Assembly (NCBI GenBank): GCA_964567695.1 | Contig: CAZMNQ010000003.1 | Span: forward strand, 1 to 37,776 | Direction of reading: 5' to 3' | DNA: 37,776 nt | Source: an uncultured Bdellovibrionales bacterium | Lineage (GTDB): Bacteria; Patescibacteriota; Minisyncoccia; Moranbacterales; UBA2206 | Shown: positions 1,500 to 37,494 of the stretch, one piece after another | Layout: each line of letters starts with the position of its first letter | Numbering within the stretch: the first letter of the stretch is position 1 | Notes under the pieces: model-generated | The model's input: only the letters and a program-made list of their open reading frames with translations | The model's database searches: none | What the model was told of the DNA's origin: nothing | Made by a program: the position numbers and the translations under genes

Positions 1500-4124
1500 A
1501 TGCGAGAAATTTCCAAACAATTTGATTTCAAAGAGAGGGAAGGGAAAATTTACGCGCTTTGGGAGAAGAGTGGGTTTTTTAATCCGGATAATATAAAATC
1601 TTCTAACCTGCCTGCCGGTAGGCAAGGAAAATATTGCAATGTTTTGCCGCCACCGAATGCCAATGGCGAATTGCATATCGGCCACGCCAGCGGTTATGCG
1701 GTGATGGATATTTTCGGCCGTTTCGAACGGATGGGTGGCAAAAAAGTTTTGCTTTTGCCAGGCAAAGATCATGCCGGCATCCAGACGCAAGTTGTTTTTG
1801 AGCGAAAAATAAAAGAAGAGCAAGGGATAATTCGCCAAGAAATGGGCCGGGGAAAATTTTACGCGGCTTGTTATGATTTTTGCATGGATCGCTCGAACTA
1901 TATGCGCTCGCAGGAAAAGAAAATCGGTATCAGCGCGGATTGGTCGCGGGAAAAATTTACACTGGATCCGGACGGATTGAAAATCGCGCTGGAGACTTTT
2001 GTAAAAATGTATAAAGATGGTTTGGTATATAAGGGTAATCGGATTATCAATTGGTGTTCGCGTTGCGCGACAGCTTTGAGTGATGTTGAGGTGGAGCACA
2101 AAGAAAGAGAGGGAAAATTATATTATATCAAATATCCAATCAAAGATTCCAAGGAATTCATTGTGGTGGCGACAACTCGTCCGGAAACAATGTTGGGAGA
2201 CTCTGCTGTGGCAGTTAATCCAAAAGACAAGAGATTCTTGGGTTTTATCGGCCAGAACTTGATTTTGCCATTGCAAAACAGGGAAATTCCCGTGATTGCC
2301 GATCGGCGAATTGATATGAAATTTGGAACCGGTGCGGTGAAGATTACGCCGGCGCATGATCCATTGGACTGGCAAATTGGCAAGGATCATAAATTGGAAG
2401 AAATTTTTGTCATTGATGAAAAAGCTAAAATTACGGAAGCCGGCGGTGAATATGTCGGTCTGGATGTTTTGGAGGCCAGAGAAAAAATTGTAGCCGATTT
2501 GCAAGGGCTGGGATTTTTGGAAAAAGAAGAATCTTTGACTAATGCTGTTTCTGTTTGTGAAAGATGTAAGACTATAATTGAGCCGTTGATTTCAAACCAA
2601 TGGTTTGTGTCGGTGGACTCGGAAAAATATTCCTTTAAGAAAAAAACTTTAGAGATGATCAAGTCCGGCAAGGTTGAGATTTATCCGGAAAATTTCAAAA
2701 AAATTCTCATCCATTGGTTAAATAATTTGCAGGATTGGTGTATTTCACGACAAATATGGTGGGGACCGCAGTTTCCAGTGTGGTATCGTGGCGAAGAGAT
2801 TTATGTCGGACTGGAAAAACCCAAAGGCAAGGATTCCGACTCCGCCAAGGCTACGACGGGCAAGTGGATTCAGGACGAAAATACTTTGGACACTTGGTTT
2901 TCTTCAAGTCAGTGGCCATATACAGCACTGGGTTATCCCAACGGAAAAGACTGTAAAAACTTTTATCCAACCGACGCTATGATTACGGGTCGTGATTTGT
3001 TGTTCTTTTGGGCAGCAAGAATGTTGATGATGGGTGGTTATCGTACCGGGAAAGTTCCTTTCAAAAATCTATATTTTACTGGCTTAATTTTGGACAAGGA
3101 TGGGCATAAATTTTCCAAGTCGCGAGGCAATGGCATTGACCCGCTAGAAATCATTGAAAAATATGGCGCGGATGCACTGCGTTTGAGCTTAGTGATGGAT
3201 ATTGCGCCGGGACAAGACGCGCGGCTCTATGAGGAAAAAATTGAAAGCTTCCGCAATTTTGTGACCAAGCTGTGGAATATTTTCCGCTATTGCAAGCAAT
3301 CGGATGAAAATTTTGCTTTGGTGGAAAAAATAAGCAAAAAAGATTTGAAAACTTTGTCAGACAGATGGATTGTTTCTGAATTGGAAGAGGTGACAAAAAA
3401 AGTTACACAATGCATGAAAGACAAGCAGATTTCTTTGGCGCAGGACGCATTGCGCAAATTTACTTGGGATAGTTTCGCTGATTGGTTCGTTGAAATAAAT
3501 AAACTGGAAAAGAATACTAAGGTTTTGGGCTATGTTCTGGACAAAATTTTGAAACTTTGGCATCCGTTCACGCCTTTTGTGACAGAGGAAATTTATCAAA
3601 TTTTGAATAAGAGTGAAGATATTTTGATGATGGCTAAATGGCCGAAAAGTGAAAAGAAATTTATTGATGCCAAGGCGCAGGCTAATTTTGCCGATCTGCA
3701 AGAATTGATTGCAAAAATTCGAAATATTCGGGCGAGTTATCACATTAATCCAGCGGAGTTGATAGAGGCGTATGGCAAGCTTAAGACCGAAAAAGAAATC
3801 GTGGAAAAACTCGGTCGAGTTAAAATTGAAACTAAGATTGCCAAAGAGAAAATGACCCAAATTTCTACTCGCAAGAGATCATTGCAACTGAATATCTCCA
3901 AATCGATAGATGTGGAAAAAGAAATTATTGCTTCAGCCAAAGAAATTCAAAATTTGACACAACTTGTGGCCAAAAACGAAGGTATGTTGAAAAACAAACA
4001 GTTTGTGGCTGGAGCGCCCAAGGAAATTATTGAGGCAACAAAGACAAGATTAGAAGAATATAAGGAAAAATTGGAGGTGCAAGCAGCGCTTAAGAATAGC
4101 CTAGAACAGCTTAAAAGAACTTAA
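1500..4124 (+). CDS. valS: Valyl-tRNA synthetase
   Basis: 874 aa. HIGH motif PPPNANGELHIGHA, KMSKS-type KFSKSRGN, DTWFSSSQWP and a C-terminal coiled coil. Carries a 21-nt palindromic insert near the N-terminus (1607-1627). Confidence 0.95.
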   Translation: MREISKQFDFKEREGKIYALWEKSGFFNPDNIKSSNLPAGRQGKYCNVLPPPNANGELHIGHASGYAVMDIFGRFERMGGKKVLLLPGKDHAGIQTQVVFERKIKEEQGIIRQEMGRGKFYAACYDFCMDRSNYMRSQEKKIGISADWSREKFTLDPDGLKIALETFVKMYKDGLVYKGNRIINWCSRCATALSDVEVEHKEREGKLYYIKYPIKDSKEFIVVATTRPETMLGDSAVAVNPKDKRFLGFIGQNLILPLQNREIPVIADRRIDMKFGTGAVKITPAHDPLDWQIGKDHKLEEIFVIDEKAKITEAGGEYVGLDVLEAREKIVADLQGLGFLEKEESLTNAVSVCERCKTIIEPLISNQWFVSVDSEKYSFKKKTLEMIKSGKVEIYPENFKKILIHWLNNLQDWCISRQIWWGPQFPVWYRGEEIYVGLEKPKGKDSDSAKATTGKWIQDENTLDTWFSSSQWPYTALGYPNGKDCKNFYPTDAMITGRDLLFFWAARMLMMGGYRTGKVPFKNLYFTGLILDKDGHKFSKSRGNGIDPLEIIEKYGADALRLSLVMDIAPGQDARLYEEKIESFRNFVTKLWNIFRYCKQSDENFALVEKISKKDLKTLSDRWIVSELEEVTKKVTQCMKDKQISLAQDALRKFTWDSFADWFVEINKLEKNTKVLGYVLDKILKLWHPFTPFVTEEIYQILNKSEDILMMAKWPKSEKKFIDAKAQANFADLQELIAKIRNIRASYHINPAELIEAYGKLKTEKEIVEKLGRVKIETKIAKEKMTQISTRKRSLQLNISKSIDVEKEIIASAKEIQNLTQLVAKNEGMLKNKQFVAGAPKEIIEATKTRLEEYKEKLEVQAALKNSLEQLKRT
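1607..1627. repeat. Family P1 palindromic core, degenerate copy, in frame inside valS
   Basis: CCTGCCTGCCGGTAGGCAAGG differs at 2 positions from the P1 consensus CCTGCCTGCCGGCAGGCAGG. It encodes LPAGRQG in the variable segment just before the HIGH motif. Confidence 0.7.
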
Positions 4125-4195: not shown

Positions 4196-5476
4196 ATGTC
4201 TAAGATAAAAAAGATTTTTGCCAGGGAGATTTTGGATTCACGGGGTAATCCGACAGTGGAAGTGGAAGTTGAATTGGAGTCGGGAATTAAAGCTGTGGCA
4301 GCGGTGCCGTCAGGCGCTTCGACTGGAATTTTTGAGGCTTTGGAATTGCGAGATGGCGATAAGAAAAGATTTAGTGGGTTGGGAGTTTTGCAAGCCGTGG
4401 AGAATGTGAATGAAAAAATCCAAAAAGTTGTGGTTGGTATGGAAGTGGAAGGTCAAATTGAAATTGATCAAAAAATGCTGGAATTGGATGGAACGGAAAA
4501 TAAAACTAATTTGGGAGCCAACGCAATTTTAGGTGTCTCACTGGCTGTTTGCCGCGCCGCGTCTGTTGAGGCTGGCATACCGTTGTATAAATATATTTCT
4601 AAGGCCTACAAACTACCTGCCTGCCGGACAGGCAGGAAAACCACGGGCTTTAAAATGCCCATTCCCATGTTTAATATCATCAATGGCGGCAAGCACAGTG
4701 ATTCAGGACTTTCAATTCAGGAATATAAGTTGGTACCCAATGGCATTAAATCGTTCAAGGAGCAATTCCGTGCTGGCAGTGAAATTTTTCATAAATTAAA
4801 AGATATCTTGGCTTCTGAGGGACAAAGCGTGGCTGTGGGTGATGAAGGTGGTTTTGCGCCTCGCCTGGAAAGCAACTCCAAACCCTTGGAACTGATTAAT
4901 CGTGCTATAGAAGAAGCCGGTTATAAAAAAGGAAAGGAAGTCAGTACGGCGATAGATGCGGCGGCTTCATCTTTTTTTGACGAAAAAGAAGGACAATATA
5001 TTTTCAAACCGGAAAGCAACGGCATCACTCGTGAAATGTTGGTGAATATTTATAGCGAATGGATAAATAAATATAATGTAATGTCAGTTGAGGACGGTTT
5101 GAATGAGCAAGATTGGGAAGGCTGGCGCGCGATGGAAGAAAAAATTGGAAAGACGGTGATGACAATTGGCGATGATCTCTTGGTGACCAATGTAAAAAGA
5201 TTGGAAATAGCGATCAAAGAAAAAGCGTGCAATTCTGTTTTGATCAAGGTTAATCAGATCGGCACCCTAACAGAAACGATGGCGTGCATAAAATTGGCCA
5301 AGAAAAATAAGATGCGAATCGTCATTTCGCATCGTTCAGGCGAAACCACTGATGACTTCATAGCCGACCTAGCCGTGGGCGTGCAAGCCGACTACATAAA
5401 ATCCGGCTCCCTTTCCCGAGGCGAGCGAATTTGTAAATATAATCGCTTGTTGAGGATTGAGGAAGAAATAAAATAG
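4196..5476 (+). CDS. eno: Enolase (phosphopyruvate hydratase)
   Basis: MSKIKKIFAREILDSRGNPTVEVEV..., SGASTG, NIINGGKH, IKVNQIGTLTET and SHRSGETTD are textbook enolase motifs. Carries a 21-nt palindromic insert (4616-4636). Confidence 0.95.
   Translation: MSKIKKIFAREILDSRGNPTVEVEVELESGIKAVAAVPSGASTGIFEALELRDGDKKRFSGLGVLQAVENVNEKIQKVVVGMEVEGQIEIDQKMLELDGTENKTNLGANAILGVSLAVCRAASVEAGIPLYKYISKAYKLPACRTGRKTTGFKMPIPMFNIINGGKHSDSGLSIQEYKLVPNGIKSFKEQFRAGSEIFHKLKDILASEGQSVAVGDEGGFAPRLESNSKPLELINRAIEEAGYKKGKEVSTAIDAAASSFFDEKEGQYIFKPESNGITREMLVNIYSEWINKYNVMSVEDGLNEQDWEGWRAMEEKIGKTVMTIGDDLLVTNVKRLEIAIKEKACNSVLIKVNQIGTLTETMACIKLAKKNKMRIVISHRSGETTDDFIADLAVGVQADYIKSGSLSRGERICKYNRLLRIEEEIK
4616..4636. repeat. 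Family P1 palindromic core in frame inside eno
   Basis: CCTGCCTG-CCGGA-CAGGCAGG. It encodes PACRTGR, within the LPACRTGRK segment, in the loop preceding PIPMFNIINGGKH. Confidence 0.75.
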
Positions 5477-26494: not shown

Positions 26495-27208
26495 GTGAAA
26501 TTTGATATAATTACAATTTTTCCTGAGATATTTGACTCCTATTTTTCCGAGTCGATTATTAAGCGCGCGCAAGGCGCTGGTTTTGTAGATATAAATATTA
26601 TTAATTTGCGTGACTACACGACAGATAGTCATAAGACTGTTGACGACACGCCCTATGGCGGAGGAGCGGGTATGGTTATGAAAGTTGAACCGATATATCG
26701 AGCTGTTGGCTCGATAATTTCCAATTTCCTCCGCCGCGGCGGACCAATTTCCAATGAATTTTCAAATTCAAATTCCAAAATTTCTAAACCAGATAATGTA
26801 TGTATTATTTTATTTTCAGCTAAGGGGAAGCGCTATACACAGCAAGACGCAGTTAGATTATCTAAATATGAAAATATTATAATGATTTGCGGTCGCTATG
26901 AAGGCGTGGATGAAAGAGTGATTGAACACATCGCGGATGAAGAAATTTCCATCGGAGATTTTGTTTTAACGGGTGGTGAAATTCCGGCGATGGTGGTTGT
27001 GGATAGCATCACGCGTCTCATTCCGGGTGTTCTTGGCAATAGTGAATCAATTGTGGCAGAGTCCCACAGTGAAGAACAATATTTGGAATATCCGCAATAC
27101 ACAAAACCGGAGTATTTTTCAGGTTGGAAAGTCCCTGAAGTGCTTTTGAGCGGCAATCATAAAAAAATTTCCGTTTGGCGCGAAGATAGTTCTAAATCAG
27201 TGAAATAA
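26495..27208 (+). CDS. trmD: tRNA (guanine37-N1)-methyltransferase
   Basis: GTG start. [53 protein letters not shown]. Carries an in-frame repeat element at 26715-26784. Confidence 0.9.
26715..26784 (+). repeat. Family P2 element (core TCCGCCGCGGCGGA at 26730-26743) in frame inside trmD
   Basis: AATTTCCAATTTCC-TCCGCCGCGGCGGA-CCAATTTCCAATGAATTTTCAAATTCAAATTCCAAAATTTC. The 9-mer CCAATTTCC directly flanks the core on both sides. Encodes [23 protein letters not shown]. Confidence 0.8.
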
Positions 27209-28392: not shown

Positions 28393-28469
28393 CTTGAAAA
28401 TTTAGTAATTGAAGATTGATTGTAAATTCCTGCCTGCCGGCAGGCAGGGAAAATTGTAAATTGAAAATT
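28393..28469 (+). repeat. Family P1 full-length element (core 28429-28448), intergenic between ftsW and murG
   Basis: CTTGAAAATTTAGTAATTGAAGATTGATTGTAAATT-CCTGCCTGCCGGCAGGCAGG-GAAAATTGTAAATTGAAAATT. Perfect 20-nt palindrome. The arms are homologous to the copy inside miaB. Confidence 0.8.
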
Positions 28470-29652: not shown

Positions 29653-31086
29653 TTGAAAAATATGGATTTATCAAAAATTAAAAATGTCTATGTGATTGGC
29701 ATTAAGGGCTCGGGTATTGTGGGTATTGTGGAAATTCTCACAAAAATGGGCATATTTGTGAGCGGATCGGATGTACCGGAGAAGTTTTTTACTGATGAAA
29801 TTTTGCAAAAATTAGATATAAAATATTTTGAGGAATTCTCAGAAAAAAATATTCCGGAAAATGTTGATTTAATTTTATATTCAACCGCCTATAACGCGGA
29901 GAATAATATTGAATTTAATGCGGCTAAAGAAAGAGATGTGTTGATGATGAGTTATCCGGAAATTTTAGGGGAACTTTTTAATCAAAAATATGGCATTGCG
30001 GTTTGTGGAACACATGGCAAAACTACAACTTCTGCCATGATGGCCTTTGTTTTGCAGGCAGTGGGCGTTTCTCCGACCGCGGTCATTGGTAGCCGCGTCA
30101 AACAGTGGGGTGGCAATGCTCTAGTTGGCACAGGAGAATATTTTGTTATTGAAGCGGATGAATATCAAAATAAATTAAGACTATATGAGCCAAAAGGAGT
30201 AATTCTTACAAGTGTGGATTGGGACCATCCAGACACATATCCAACTCTTAATGAATATAAAAAAGCTTTTACAGATTTTGTGGCTAAAATTCCCAAAACT
30301 GGTTTTCTAGTCGTTTGGGGAGATAGTATTGATACAAATGAAATTGCTAAGTATTGTACTGCTAAAGTAATTAAATATGGATTTGGAGAGGATAATGATG
30401 TTGTAATTTCAAATTTCAAATTTCATCCGCCGCGGCGGACAAATCAAAATCAAATGTCAAATGATCAAAATGATGAATTAAAATATCAGAGTTTTGATGT
30501 TATGTATAAAAAAGAGAATCTGGGTAGTTTTCAAATTAAACTTATTGGAAAACATAATGTTTTGAATGCTGGAGCGGTAATTGCAGTGTGTCACAAGTTG
30601 AATTTGGATATGGAAAAGGTGCGTGAAGCATTGAAGGATTTTTCCGGAACTTCAAGGCGCTTTGAAATGATTGGGCAGAGGAATGGCGCTATTTTAATTG
30701 ATGATTATGGCCATCATCCGGAAGAAATCAAAGCTACGCTGAAAGCGACTAGAGAAATTTATCCGGACAAAAATATTATTGCAGTCTTTCATCCGCATTC
30801 CTATTCACGAACCGAAGCCTTGTTACAAGATTTTGCGCAAAGTTTTGATGACGCGGACCGTGTGATTGTGCTGGACATCTATGGTAGCGCCCGGGAAAAC
30901 ACAGGCAATGTTTCTTCTGAGGATCTAGTAAAATTGATTAACAAATATAATCGCGGCAAAGCTGAATATATTGCAACCATTGATGGAGCCGTAGAATCCT
31001 TGCAAGATAAAATCAGCGACACGGATATTGTTCTGGCGATTGGCGCCGGCAATGTTTTTGAGGTGGTGAAAAAATTAAAATTTTAA
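29653..31086 (+). CDS. murC: UDP-N-acetylmuramate--L-alanine ligase
   Basis: GIKGSGI..., VSGSD, VCGTHGKTTTSAM, EADEYQ, GKHNVLNA, IDDYGHHPEEI. The ORF track starts at TTG 29653; ATG at 29662 is an equally plausible start. In-frame repeat element at 30404-30470. Confidence 0.9.
   Translation: MKNMDLSKIKNVYVIGIKGSGIVGIVEILTKMGIFVSGSDVPEKFFTDEILQKLDIKYFEEFSEKNIPENVDLILYSTAYNAENNIEFNAAKERDVLMMSYPEILGELFNQKYGIAVCGTHGKTTTSAMMAFVLQAVGVSPTAVIGSRVKQWGGNALVGTGEYFVIEADEYQNKLRLYEPKGVILTSVDWDHPDTYPTLNEYKKAFTDFVAKIPKTGFLVVWGDSIDTNEIAKYCTAKVIKYGFGEDNDVVISNFKFHPPRRTNQNQMSNDQNDELKYQSFDVMYKKENLGSFQIKLIGKHNVLNAGAVIAVCHKLNLDMEKVREALKDFSGTSRRFEMIGQRNGAILIDDYGHHPEEIKATLKATREIYPDKNIIAVFHPHSYSRTEALLQDFAQSFDDADRVIVLDIYGSARENTGNVSSEDLVKLINKYNRGKAEYIATIDGAVESLQDKISDTDIVLAIGAGNVFEVVKKLKF
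30404..30470 (+). repeat. Family P2 element (core 30426-30439) in frame inside murC
   Basis: TAATTTCAAATTTCAAATTTCA-TCCGCCGCGGCGGA-CAAATCAAAATCAAATGTCAAATGATCAAAA. Encodes SNFKFHPPRRTNQNQMSNDQ, a different reading frame from the trmD and miaA copies. Confidence 0.8.
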
Positions 31087-31090
31087 ATTT

Positions 31091-32023
31091 ATGTTAAATA
31101 TTCAAAAAAATATAAATATAGCTCCCTACACAACTTTCAAAATCGGCGGACCAGCGAAATATTTTGCAGAGGTTAATTCGGAGGAAGATATTTTTGAGGC
31201 GCTGAGATATGCCAAGGATAATGGCCTGCAATTTTTTATATTGGGTGGCGGTAGCAATATTTTGGTGAATGACAAAGGCTTTGACGGGTTGATTATAAAA
31301 ATGAAATTAGATGATCTCAAGATGGATGTGTCTCGGGGCATAATCGAAATCGGGGCAGGGGTGATTCTGGCGAAAATAGTGAAAAATTCCACTGCCGAGG
31401 GATTGACGGGCCTAGAATGGGCTTCCGGCATCCCTGGGACGGTTGGCGGAGCATTGAGGGGCAATGCGAGAGCTTTTGGACGCAATATCGGTATGTCAGT
31501 CGAAACTATTGAGGCACTAGATATTACGACCCTAGAAAGAACCACTTATAATAATTCCGAGTGTGAATTTGCCTATTGGGGTAGTATGTTTAAAAAAAAT
31601 CCCAACCTGATTATTTTGTCCGCTAAGATTAAGCTGGAAAAAGGTGACGCGGAAAAAAGTCAACAAGAGGCCAGGAATATTATAGTCAAAAGAATGGCTA
31701 TACATCCGACAGGCAGCAGCGCAGGTTCATTTTTTCTAAATCCAGTGGTGTTTGATGAAAAATTGCGGGAGAGATTTGAAAAGGATTCCGGAACAGCCTG
31801 TCGAGACAACAAAATTCCTGCTGGCTGGCTAATAGACGAAGTTGGACTGCGCGGTAAAAAAATAGGCGGAATTCAAGTGAGCGAAAAACATGCGAACTTT
31901 GTAATAAATATTGGGGGCGGAACAGCCGAGGAGGTTGTGATGCTGACAAGCTTTGTTAAACAGCAAGTGCGTGATAAACTAGGGATTGAGTTGCAAGAAG
32001 AAATTCAATTTGTAGGGTTCTGA
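31091..32023 (+). CDS. murB: UDP-N-acetylenolpyruvoylglucosamine reductase
   Basis: YTTFKIGGPAKYF, ILGGGSNILV, GIPGTVGGA, GSFFLNP, AGWLID..GLRG...G...VS.KHANF. Confidence 0.9.
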   Translation: MLNIQKNINIAPYTTFKIGGPAKYFAEVNSEEDIFEALRYAKDNGLQFFILGGGSNILVNDKGFDGLIIKMKLDDLKMDVSRGIIEIGAGVILAKIVKNSTAEGLTGLEWASGIPGTVGGALRGNARAFGRNIGMSVETIEALDITTLERTTYNNSECEFAYWGSMFKKNPNLIILSAKIKLEKGDAEKSQQEARNIIVKRMAIHPTGSSAGSFFLNPVVFDEKLRERFEKDSGTACRDNKIPAGWLIDEVGLRGKKIGGIQVSEKHANFVINIGGGTAEEVVMLTSFVKQQVRDKLGIELQEEIQFVGF

Positions 32024-32182
32024 GAGCCTGTTCATAATCTCCGTATTCTGCTGCGAAATTGAAATTCCGGCTGCAAATTGTTCAAAATTCGTCGAAATAT
32101 CCAGATATTCCTCCTCATTTTTCACAATTTTCGCTCGAAATTTCAATCTCTCGCGACGAAAGAGAGATTATGAGCAGGCTCT
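32023..32182 (+). repeat. 160-nt MITE-like or structured-RNA element with 19-nt terminal inverted repeats
   Basis: AGAGCCTGTTCATAATCTC (32023-32041) and GAGATTATGAGCAGGCTCT (32164-32182) pair at 18 of 19 Watson-Crick positions, plus one T-G (plus-strand G-U). It starts at the last base of the murB TGA stop. Internal sub-hairpins are present. Confidence 0.65.
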
Positions 32183-34957: not shown

Positions 34958-35949
34958 TTTTTTATAAAAACTGAAACTTCTTTCTCCATATCCTTGTATT
35001 TTTTCAACCACTTTATGCGATGGTCTTTTTGAAACCAGGTCATTTGCCGTTTAGCATAGTCTTTTTCGGCTAAATAGACTCGTTCGTATAATTCTTCAAG
35101 AGTTATTTTTTCTTGCAGATATTCCGGTATCCAAAAATAGCCCAGTCCGAAGCTTTGAATTTTTTGAAAACTTAAGCCGGATTTTTTCAGTTTTTGTACC
35201 TCAGAAATCATGCCGGCCTGCCAGCGCGTATCGAGGCGTTTTTTGATTTTAGCGTGCAGTTTTTCTTTGGGAACGGAAATGCCGATTTGGAGAAACTCGT
35301 AACTCGTAACTTGTAATCCGTAACTCATGTCGGGAACTTTACCTAAAGTTTTGCAAATTTCAATGGCGCGAATGAGGCGCACTTTGTTTTTGGCATCGAT
35401 GTTTTCAGCGCGTCTAGGATCTAGTTTTTTTAATTCATGAATTAATTCAGTAATTTCTTTTTGCTCAAGTTTCTTGCGTAATTTCCAATCCGGCTTGACT
35501 TCTGGATAGGTTATATTATCCACAGCAGCTTTTATCCAAAAGCCGGTACCGCCACACAAGATGGGCAACTTTCCGCGTCTCAGAATGTCTTTAATAATTT
35601 TGTCTGCTTTCTTTTTAAATTGTGCTGCGCTGAAATTGGTTTTAGGACTGACAATGTCCAGCATATGATGCACGACGCCTTCGGAAATAAAAGGTTTTAT
35701 TTTTTTAAATTTAGTATTTTGAATTTGATTTGAAATTTGTCCGCCGCGGCGGATGAAATTTGAAATTTTATCTTGTGTCACTTTGCCCGTACCAACATCC
35801 ATGCCACGATAAATCTGGCGTGAATCAACCGAAACAACTTCGCCATCGAATTTCTGGGCAAGTTTAATCGCCACCGCTGATTTTCCAGCCGATGTAGGAC
35901 CTAATATCACGATAATTTTATTCAGTGGTAATTTATTGTATTTTGTCAT
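34954..35949 (-). CDS. miaA: tRNA dimethylallyltransferase
   Basis: ILGPTSAGKSAVAIKLA P-loop, SVDSRQIYRGMDVGTGK, HHMLDI, ILCGGTGFW, RLIRAIEI. Contains an in-frame repeat element at 35707-35769 and a heptamer microsatellite at 35296-35326. Confidence 0.9.
   Translation of the reverse strand: MTKYNKLPLNKIIVILGPTSAGKSAVAIKLAQKFDGEVVSVDSRQIYRGMDVGTGKVTQDKISNFIRRGGQISNQIQNTKFKKIKPFISEGVVHHMLDIVSPKTNFSAAQFKKKADKIIKDILRRGKLPILCGGTGFWIKAAVDNITYPEVKPDWKLRKKLEQKEITELIHELKKLDPRRAENIDAKNKVRLIRAIEICKTLGKVPDMSYGLQVTSYEFLQIGISVPKEKLHAKIKKRLDTRWQAGMISEVQKLKKSGLSFQKIQSFGLGYFWIPEYLQEKITLEELYERVYLAEKDYAKRQMTWFQKDHRIKWLKKYKDMEKEVSVFIKN
35296..35326. repeat. Heptamer microsatellite inside miaA
   Basis: CTCGTAA CTCGTAA CTTGTAA TCCGTAA CTC on the plus strand. 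Encodes YGLQVTSYEF on the coding (minus) strand. Confidence 0.6.
35707..35769 (-). repeat. Family P2 element (core 35740-35753) in frame inside miaA
   Basis: Coding strand reads AAAATTTCAAATTTCA-TCCGCCGCGGCGGA-CAAATTTCAAATCAAATTCAAAATACT. The 9-mer CAAATTTCA flanks the core on both sides. Encodes KISNFIRRGGQISNQIQNT. Confidence 0.8.
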
Positions 35950-36042: not shown

Positions 36043-37494
36043 TTAAACGATTTCTCCTTCCAAATTCCAAATGCTAACTTTAGTAATTTTAACTTTTATA
36101 ATCTTGCCAATCAGAGATCCCTCGACAAGTTCGGGATGACAATCGTTACTGATTGTCATTTTGACATTTTTTCCGGTGCGGGTTTTGCCGAAATAAATAT
36201 GGTGCTTTCCTAGAGCTAAGCTCTTGGAATCCAAGAGCTTAGCTCTAGGAGAACTTTCCTTTTCGATCAGGATTTCGACAGTCGTGTTGAGGAATTTTTT
36301 GCTATTTTTCAGCGCGGTCTTTTTCAGGATTTCATTTAAAAATTGTTCGCGACGGGCTTTTTCGGTTTTGGAAACTGAGTCTTTCATATTCCAAGCCGGT
36401 GTGCCGGGGCGGGGGGAAAATTGGCCAAAGAAAACCATGTCGTAACCGACTTTTTCCATGATTTCCGCAGAGTCTAAAAATTGTTTTTTGGTTTCACTTG
36501 GGAAGCCGACAATGATATCGGAAGTGATGACGGCTGGCACGCCCGATTTATTTTTTTTGAAAGCGGCTTGAATTTTTTTAACTAAAATCAAATATTCTTG
36601 CGCGGTGTATTTGCGATTCATTTTTCTGAGGACTTCATCATTGCCAGCTTGGATGGGCAGATGAAAAGCTTCGCAAACTTTTTTGCATTTCGTTACTGTT
36701 TCAATCATTTCTGGCGACACATCTTTCGGGTGATTGCTGACAAAGCGAATCCAAAATTTTCCCGGGATGGCGTTGACTTTTTTTACGAGCTTAGAAAAAT
36801 TTATTTTGCCATCCGAGTATGAATTAACATTTTGTCCAAGCAAAGTTATTTCTTTGTAGCCTTTTTTCACTAGATTTTTTACTTCATAAATTATTTCTTC
36901 CGCCGGTCTGGAAACTTCCCGTCCACGAGCATAGGGCACGACGCAGTAGGCGCAGAAATTGTTGCAGCCGGTCATAATCGGCACAAAAGCTTGATATGCA
37001 TTTGTAAGTTTTGGTTTAATGGATAGATAAGAGATATTTTCTTTGCTTAGTTCGATATTTTTTTGTGCCGAAATTTTCAATTTACAATTTACAACCTTGC
37101 CTGCCGGCAGGCAGGTTTTCAATGAATTTTCAATGATAAAATTTTCAAACAGCTCAAAATTGTTAATAGGGGAAAATAAATCAACTTTATTTTTTAGTCT
37201 TCTTTGCACATCTTTGCGGTTGGCGAGACAACCAGTTAAAACAATCTTGATTTTTGGATTAGCCTTTTTGAGATTATGAACTTGTCCATAGACCCGATCT
37301 TCGGCCATTTGGCGCACCCCACAGGTGTTGAAAATGACCAAACCTGCCTTCGCTAAGGCTTCGGCAGGCAAGTCAGCATTTTCGTTCCTAGTAAGTGGTT
37401 CTAGTCCTTGTGATTCCAGAAAACTGGCAATCCGCTCACTGTCTGAATGGTTCATCTGGCAACCAAAAGTTTTGATAGAGTATGTTTTATTCAT
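36043..37494 (-). CDS. miaB: tRNA-i6A37 methylthiotransferase (radical SAM MTTase)
   Basis: TFGCQMNHSDSE and FNTCGVR (N-terminal cluster), GCNNFCAYCVVPYARGRE (radical SAM CxxxCxxC), C-terminal TRAM domain. Contains at least three palindromic in-frame inserts. Confidence 0.9.
   Translation of the reverse strand: MNKTYSIKTFGCQMNHSDSERIASFLESQGLEPLTRNENADLPAEALAKAGLVIFNTCGVRQMAEDRVYGQVHNLKKANPKIKIVLTGCLANRKDVQRRLKNKVDLFSPINNFELFENFIIENSLKTCLPAGKVVNCKLKISAQKNIELSKENISYLSIKPKLTNAYQAFVPIMTGCNNFCAYCVVPYARGREVSRPAEEIIYEVKNLVKKGYKEITLLGQNVNSYSDGKINFSKLVKKVNAIPGKFWIRFVSNHPKDVSPEMIETVTKCKKVCEAFHLPIQAGNDEVLRKMNRKYTAQEYLILVKKIQAAFKKNKSGVPAVITSDIIVGFPSETKKQFLDSAEIMEKVGYDMVFFGQFSPRPGTPAWNMKDSVSKTEKARREQFLNEILKKTALKNSKKFLNTTVEILIEKESSPRAKLLDSKSLALGKHHIYFGKTRTGKNVKMTISNDCHPELVEGSLIGKIIKVKITKVSIWNLEGEIV
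36116..36159 (-). repeat. Hairpin-containing in-frame insert in the miaB TRAM domain
   Basis: ATGACAATC-GTTACT-GATTGTCAT hairpin at 36136-36159, next to CCCTCGACAAGTTCGGG. Encodes TISNDCHPELVEGS between conserved V.M and LIGKIIKVKI. Confidence 0.55.
36208..36250. repeat. Near-perfect 41-43-nt palindrome in frame inside miaB
   Basis: CCTAGAGCTAAGCTCTTGGA-A-TCCAAGAGCTTAGCTCTAGG: 20 of 20 pairs around a single central base, and each arm is itself palindromic (AGAGCTAAGCTCT). Encodes SPRAKLLDSKSLALG. Confidence 0.75.
37072..37149 (-). repeat. Family P1 full-length element (core 37095-37115), 78 nt, in frame inside miaB
   Basis: Minus strand reads TTTGAAAATTTTATCATTGAAAATTCATTGAAAA-CCTGCCTGCCGGCAAGG-TTGTAAATTGTAAATTGAAAATT. 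It shares ATTGTAAATTGAAAATT and the left arm with the intergenic copy at 28393-28469. Encodes FENFIIENSLKTCLPAGKVVNCKLKI. Confidence 0.8.

Follow-up and report, generated by a model that had tools for sequence, protein, structure and literature searches.

The gene for valyl-tRNA synthetase (valS; enzyme, ValRS) in the DNA analyzed here contains 21 bases, upstream of the sequence for the HIGH signature, that are most probably one copy of a tiny hairpin-forming insert, mobile or unstable, which selection screens for an intact reading frame. The window, which is the whole stretch of 37,776 nucleotides, is contig C3 of genome G000 (1,097,922 bp in 171 contigs, 39.1% GC), from a Moranbacteria-like, ultra-small groundwater bacterium of the candidate phyla radiation (CPR). 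The insert belongs to a dispersed GC-rich near-palindrome, designated P1 (consensus 20-mer CCTGCCTGCCGGCAGGCAGG), and most comparisons below are with a member of the same genus, G002.

A P1 copy in valS

Comparative genomics shows that the 21 bases are a genuine in-frame insertion in valS. ValRS was recovered in 41 of 41 related genomes; G001, the genus's third member (70% complete), yielded no ortholog. The closest set consists of 13 orthologs, and with 12 further distinct ones from database records included, 41 distinct sequences were compared in all. Ten of the 13 closest (L003-L007, L009 and L011-L014) have a clean gap of seven codons (..KSSK-KYCN), and the window translates to KSSKKYCN when 1607-1627 are removed. 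G002 is the sole carrier among the 13, both genomes reading AAC CTG CCT GCC GGT AGG CAA GGA AAA, and the remaining two (L008 and L010) have unrelated inserts of seven residues. Only one of the 41 distinct orthologs, that of G002, has P1 in this loop. The first-pass annotation, which had described this copy and the LPAGRQG that it adds before the HIGH region, named the same residues in distant ValRS sequences as what would refute its reading; the copy and its codons are found as described, and LPAGRQG is absent from the other 40 distinct orthologs.

The 21 bases are likewise, on sequence grounds, a member of a repeat family: the 21-mer has four matches in the window at no more than three mismatches, versus none in 100 dinucleotide-preserving shuffles. 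The valS copy differs from the perfect 20-mer by one C>T substitution and one extra A (edit distance 2), not by two substitutions as first read. As had been claimed, it forms a weaker hairpin than does the perfect copy located between genes at 28429-28448, both as DNA (-5.1 versus -8.8 kcal/mol) and as RNA (-9.5 versus -17.0 kcal/mol).

At the protein level the insert is predicted to lie in a low-confidence loop at the surface, which connects the N-terminal helix to strand beta1, ahead of HIGH. The PPPN motif starts at P50 (1647) and HIGH is H59-H62 (1674-1685), so that the insert ends six residues ahead of PPPN. In an AlphaFold2 model built with 28 orthologs (mean pLDDT confidence score 87.8), residues 38-40 score below 50, with an average of 58 over the block 31-40; the model has a helix at 10-24 and no regular structure from residue 36 to the strand 44-48 (KYCNV), which we take to be the first strand (beta1) of the class I Rossmann fold in ValRS, followed by PPPN and HIGH. 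The Thermus enzyme 1GAX is about six residues shorter at the position of the insert. Other lineages have GC hairpins of their own in the same loop: GTCCGCC-TGG-GGCGGAC in L010 (1501-1640), TCAGCC-TTG-GGCTGA in L093 and L095, shortened in L092 (all within 201-330), and ACCAG..CTGGT, possibly a hairpin insert, in L008. The site is evidently permissive.

The valS copy appears to be a live passenger rather than a relic. Across 861 aligned codons, valS of G000 and G002 is 83% identical as protein, 77.5% as DNA and 53.8% at third positions, yet the insert is identical at 21 of 21 nucleotides, and N36-N47 (12 codons, 36 nt, comprising the insert and KYCN) is the longest run of identical codons in the gene. 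The exact 21-mer occurs six times in G000, the five others being in RNase HII, LigA and NrdD and at two sites between genes. Of 63 copies classified in G000, 39 are the T variant, which is thus in the majority there; it also prevails in some relatives, and of the 25 copies listed in G030, one is a perfect 16-mer and all 24 others are the T variant. With the T variant so common and the exact 21-mer repeated, the two deviations of the valS copy are best read as the signature of a subfamily, in which the extra A gives the unit a length of 3n (it supplies the third base of a codon).

In metagenomes, this stretch of valS is present only in DNA contigs from aquifers and groundwater. Contigs of runs X1 and X3 span 1300-2300 with the insert and possibly come from the window's own source, and a contig of X5 covers 1300-2068 with the insert. 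Record 9 of X10, a contig of 2569 nt that is about 99.4% identical and spans 1300-2300, lacks 1607-1626 and 1628 and reads TCT AAG AAA TAT, which is the empty site of other genera; six other letters differ. Because the contigs show presence only, X10 may hold the filled allele as well. As judged from these contigs, the valS insert is present or absent within the species. Either ancient gain with later loss or repeated gain at valS may account for this distribution, each requiring two events plus one extra junction change. Summed contig depth over 1572-1639 is up to 13-fold higher (X1, X3, X5 and X10; 117 versus 8.9 in X3), a peak over P1 indicating that many other contigs of the same communities carry P1-like sequence.

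The P1 family in genes and genomes

In the genome of G000 (1.10 Mb), 78 copies match the 20-mer at an edit distance of at most 3, about one per 14 kb, and P1 is by far its commonest GC-rich perfect palindrome; a second family (TCCGCCGCGGCGGA) has about nine copies and others have at most three. Protein-coding hosts include IleRS, SecA, RecG, LigA, UvrD, NrdD, PriA, LepA, UvrC, RlmN, RsmH, Fpg, PrmC, RNase HII, two glycosyltransferases, enolase, a MiaB-like enzyme and others. Pfam domains were found in 21 of 22 host frames scanned, these being 22 of the 25 frames of at least 250 aa (all but ValRS and two frames with the copy at the very 5' edge). The core is read in all three frames, as L-P-A-G-R-Q in valS, P-A-C-R-T-G-R in eno and C-L-P-A-G-K in the miaB-like gene, just as the first-pass annotation had quoted them.

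Length distinguishes copies within genes from the others. In frames of at least 250 aa, 21 copies are 21 nt and four are 20 nt, whereas frames of less than 100 aa hold seven copies of 21 nt, 30 of 20 nt and one of 19 nt (Fisher p = 3e-7); four copies at the 5' edge of a frame are probably upstream of the start codon, and with these reclassed as non-genic the counts become 20/1 versus 8/34 (p = 4e-9). The lone in-gene 20-mer, in SecA, is still a net insertion of seven codons relative to G005, G008 and G018. A net indel of 21 nt was found in five of five clean cases: valS, eno, the miaB-like gene, SecA and a copy exclusive to G002 that corresponds to a clean gap of 21 nt in G000. So strict a 3n rule for in-gene copies suggests that the inserts are read by the ribosome and not removed, and we infer their translation solely from this rule. 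No target-site duplication was seen at any of these five sites.

The valS copy had been set apart as a core-only palindrome, but this distinction does not hold. The AT-rich flanks of the miaB-like copy are native coding sequence, conserved in the orthologs, so that the mobile unit would be the palindrome alone and a bare core the norm, and every one of the five clean indels measures 21 nt. The positions of these copies and of other features are given in Table 1; at the miaB-like site, G018 (L063) has a shorter, unclear gap.

Table 1. Positions of P1 copies, valS features and candidate transposase genes (window positions unless a contig is given)
Feature	Position	Strand	Basis or comparison
valS, valyl-tRNA synthetase, 874 aa	1500..4124	+	Open reading frame; matches Thermus ValRS 1GAX, E 9.9e-175
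P1 near-palindrome CCTGCCTGCCGGTAGGCAAGG, 21 nt, unit inserted in valS	1607..1627	+	Exact 7-codon gap in 10 of 13 closest orthologs; 21 bases absent from X10 contig record 9
Translated insert LPAGRQG, codons 37-43	1608..1628	+	Reading of the valS open reading frame and ortholog alignment
PPPNANGELHIGH, end of strand beta1 through HIGH signature	1647..1685	+	P50-N53 and H59 invariant in 28 orthologs
P1 copy in eno, 21 nt, centre-A variant	4616..4636	+	Specific to G000; absent from 5 of 5 orthologs including G002, gap of 7-8 codons
Perfect P1 copy, 20 nt, intergenic	28429..28448	.	Repeat search
P1 copy in MiaB-like radical-SAM gene, 21 nt	37095..37115	-	Specific to G000; exact 7-codon gap in G002, G005, G008 and G024; Pfam hits
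Four paralogous RAYT-like HUH/Y1 genes, about 225 aa	C63:1582-2256; C6:4503-5189; C126:906-1610; C46:6419-7114		Pfam Y1_Tnp; HYH and Y-x-x-N motifs

Copies are shared and absent between congeners in a pattern that suggests turnover. G002 has 23 P1 copies, and for 12 of them the two flanks map near each other in G000, where five of the sites are shared and seven are empty (the comparison was pairwise for six of nine of these sites, those on C4, C7 and C68 being judged from junctions). G000, G002 and G024, the last from another genus, have P1 at the SecA site, which is empty in G005, G008 and G018; the shared SecA copy has one substitution in G002. At two shared sites the G000 copy has grown (C7:14773-14819 and C4:9842-9884, versus L047 and L038 of G002): one has a second 21-nt P1 in the CCGG centre of the first, and the other has both arms symmetrically extended by CTGC/GCAG units.

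Among 41 order-level relatives, 28 contain the 16-mer core with at most one mismatch (0-49 copies per genome), and 83 of 301 genomes sampled across the phylum contain the 20-mer within one mismatch, 218 having none; a reversed control pattern gave no matches in any genome of either search. The exact 20-mer is also found in 40 stretches on 31 viral contigs of IMG/VR, many of them GC-rich and often between short tandem repeats, whereas among cultured phages and plasmids the matches were all partial and at the level of chance (E >= 0.1).

Several other roles or preferences were considered for P1. Selection at the RNA level for a G-U pair was rejected (the in-gene asymmetric variant is GGTAGG in the sense strand of five copies and CCTACC in nine, p = 0.42), and in-gene hairpins are not weaker than others (median -11.7 versus -11.8 kcal/mol, Mann-Whitney p = 0.07). 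Insertion next to A/T runs, hinted at by four clean sites, is not a property of the family (18 of 78 copies, versus 20% at random junctions). A terminator role was likewise dismissed, with no terminator-like site in 1300-2000 and TTT directly 3' of six of 78 copies, about the random rate. Rfam gave no matches at gathering score in the whole window.

P1 is also found in tRNA-like sequence. In G000, partial or corrupted tRNA copies with P1 stand beside intact tRNA genes (C23:4012-4135, C27:5998-6090, C37:1540-1590, C84:4313-4370, C101:1331-1400 and 3255-3360, C65:845-945 and C106:165-230), P1 being exactly in the D-loop (..GGTTA^GAGC, ..GGATA^GAGC) or the T-loop (GGTTC^GAGTCC), sometimes with a second GC palindrome. 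The stretch on C23 is a tandem second copy of tRNA-Lys with two inserts, and that on C27 is a repeat of the upstream region and 5' part of tRNA-Ile. Directly after the tmRNA gene (C82:2605-3097) is a second segment resembling a T-arm and acceptor, with P1 in its loop (C82:3098-3160). Interruption of tRNA genes by P1 was rejected: removing P1 in silico from ten stretches produced no new ARAGORN call, and the sequences are partial copies instead. In IMG/VR, P1 occurs in tRNA-like sequence in the variable region after a CTCATAA anticodon loop (L108 and L134) and in a D-loop, where its GGTA^GAGC position matches that in G000 (L142).

Other repeats in the window include the second palindrome family, at 26716-26748, 30412-30444 and 35726-35758 amid short repeats resembling AAATTTC, and an inverted repeat of 79 nt (32023-32182, 71% complementary, arms 2 nt apart) between two open reading frames.

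Possible routes of gain and loss, and alternative explanations

The preferred explanation, a small mobile or unstable hairpin, would proceed as follows. P1 would have entered valS as a net gain of 21 nt without target-site duplication, and would be transcribed and translated with the gene as LPAGRQG, a segment dispensable for ValRS and tolerated because the loop is unconstrained. In essential genes, selection would pass only forms that preserve the frame (21 nt), and P1 copies would be gained and lost on short time scales, by site-preferring re-insertion, by precise hairpin-mediated deletion or by allele replacement through recombination.

A tentative extension, possible but not the likeliest form of this explanation, is that what moves is the 20-nt palindrome alone, lacking flanks, terminal repeats and target duplication, near letter-perfect across Patescibacteria and environmental viral contigs, re-occupying tolerant sites (the ValRS loop, SecA and tRNA-like loops) and flipping between presence and absence within species. 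To our knowledge, such a unit would be among the smallest insertion elements known. If true, this would imply phylum-wide machinery for hairpin insertion or hairpin-driven gene conversion, which need not be RAYT-like.

Four proteins resembling REP-associated tyrosine transposases (RAYTs, where REP denotes repetitive extragenic palindromic sequences) are encoded by G000 (Table 1), 59-78% identical to each other and of a family found in 88 of the 301 phylum genomes. Single-stranded hairpins are the substrate of Y1 enzymes, whose action creates no duplication, so the duplication-free insertion of P1 is compatible with an enzyme of this type. Co-occurrence of P1 and RAYT-like genes in the 301 genomes (counts 38/45/50/168) gives an odds ratio of 2.8 (p = 2e-4, not corrected for phylogeny), and in the order-level sample the two correlate with rho = 0.46. 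That the catalyst is a single-strand hairpin-recognizing enzyme such as the RAYT-like HUH/Y1 transposases of G000 is nevertheless doubtful. The idea of one RAYT for each palindrome family was rejected, since P1 dominates, TCCGCCGCGGCGGA has only about nine copies and the rest have three or fewer, with no four-to-four pattern. No TnpB-type partner (PF07282) was found in G000 (95% complete), and none of five P1-bearing viral records, four of them fragments, has a Y1 gene.

Several observations weigh against a mobile or unstable hairpin as the explanation. The empty valS allele is known from one contig in one run (X10), and no single contiguous indel of 21 nt interconverts the two alleles, which differ also by an A/G at the junction and by a single-nucleotide polymorphism 15 nt upstream. 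With this extra junction base and upstream change, allele replacement is as likely as insertion or excision, and the polymorphism may stem from recombination with another allele. A repeat that is purely selfish would not usually be kept near letter-perfect across a phylum, as this 20-mer is, and the host may have a function for it. P1 has no enzyme linked to it, the RAYT-like Y1 genes being weakly associated with it: no GC-rich palindrome with arms of at least 6 nt lies within 600 bp of any of the four genes, their products score 29.9 bits on the NCBIfam model for REP-associated tyrosine transposases (NF047646, cut-off 80), and a RAYT-like match is missing in ten of 22 phylum genomes with at least eight P1 copies.

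A host function is the substance of the strongest alternative, in which P1 is kept for a role at the nucleic-acid level (a signal for binding, uptake or recombination) and spreads between alleles by transformation and homologous recombination rather than by transposition. This would fit its presence within one mismatch in 83 of 301 phylum genomes and on 31 viral contigs, its identity at synonymous sites between species, the nearby changes that distinguish empty from filled alleles, as a recombination tract would leave, and the filling of the SecA site in G000, G002 and G024 but not in G005, G008 and G018. Known uptake sequences, however, occur roughly once per kb and in all members of a clade, whereas P1 has a density of about one per 14 kb and is lacking from 218 of 301 genomes. 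New copies are discrete insertions of 21 nt, beyond what uptake bias alone creates, the asymmetric variant is randomly oriented with respect to genes (five versus nine), and the context is not terminator-like. A nucleic-acid signal is accordingly unlikely.

The first-pass annotation had proposed an older insertion, its palindrome eroding while selection keeps only the protein frame. The relative age stands: the valS copy is older than the eno and miaB-like copies because G002 shares it but has neither of those two, and it predates the divergence of G000 and G002. The weaker hairpin was consistent with erosion, and the substitution in the SecA copy of G002 indicates that old copies can drift. 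Decay does not stand, since none of the 21 nucleotides differs between G000 and G002, versus 22.5% over the gene as a whole and 46% at third positions; G000 has the identical 21-mer at five further places, and the T variant is the commonest form there and that of all 24 non-perfect copies listed in G030; the extra A is needed for the 3n length; and a contig about 99.4% identical has no insert. Erosion is thus largely refuted, and very unlikely.

That selection favored the seven residues for a novel function of the protein, as an adaptive lineage-specific loop of ValRS with an incidental palindrome, is scarcely credible, for although the insert is near the strand at the active-site entry and its amino acids are conserved in two species, the same nucleotides recur across about 20 unrelated genes and all three reading frames, the loop is predicted to be disordered, a near-identical contig lacks the insert, and other lineages have unrelated hairpin inserts there.

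Relation to known elements and significance

As a mobile or unstable hairpin, P1 would have several known counterparts, and by comparison of properties it appears closest in behavior to the Rickettsia palindromic elements (RPEs) and the GC clusters of yeast mitochondria and closest in size to REPs, while failing defining features of each. REPs are extragenic by definition and have a 5' GTAG foot. Like the REP/REPIN-RAYT system, P1 is a short hairpin, made imperfect by the T variant (REPs are 20-40 nt), in tens of copies in a genome with RAYT-like Y1 genes; unlike it, about 21 of 78 copies are within genes, P1 lacks the 5' GTAG foot, no P1 copies flank the RAYT-like genes, and such a gene is missing in many P1-rich genomes.

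RPEs, as they are outlined in PMC10969869, are about 150 bp and have integrated 44 times in genes of R. conorii; the likeness to P1 is that they are dispersed palindromes, in frame within unrelated housekeeping genes and translated (PMC10969869). In-frame insertion that preserves the frame is also found for P1 (21 in-gene copies, 20 of them 3n, and 21 of 22 frames with Pfam domains). In contrast to the length of about 100-150 bp and the conserved peptide of RPEs, P1 is 20-21 nt (net 21 nt in five of five clean cases) and adds seven residues that form no conserved peptide module, being read in three frames; it is found in Patescibacteria and conserved across a phylum, whereas RPEs are conserved across a genus. 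The same source summarizes miniature inverted-repeat transposable elements as non-autonomous, multi-copy, hairpin-forming, sometimes within genes, and typically larger than 50 and smaller than 500 bp (PMC10969869); P1 differs in its 20-21 nt, its lack of terminal inverted repeats beyond the palindrome and its lack of target-site duplication.

The GC clusters of yeast mitochondria are described in PMC8811140 as mostly intergenic, with polymorphic in-frame insertions in var1, and as linked to gene conversion. P1 resembles these, as they are presented there, in being a short GC-rich palindrome in an AT-rich genome with a polymorphic in-frame insertion in coding sequence, which is an analogy of behavior and not of common descent. 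The clusters, however, are organellar, and have AG/TAG terminal repeats read as target duplications (PMC8811140), none of which are present at the P1 junctions examined; they also diverge fast, whereas P1 is nearly invariant. The literature searched, which comprised papers without their supplements, yielded no published description of P1.

Essential enzymes of genome-reduced CPR bacteria (ValRS, IleRS, SecA, LigA, PriA and others) would thus carry translated selfish DNA, which is unexpected in streamlined genomes of 1 Mb. Indels of seven residues in marker proteins can mislead alignments and trees, yet can serve as markers at the strain level, and the palindromes may be partly responsible for how fragmented such assemblies are (171 contigs in this one). 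A unit of 20 nt that inserts without target duplication and is conserved phylum-wide points to an undescribed mechanism of DNA insertion or gene conversion.

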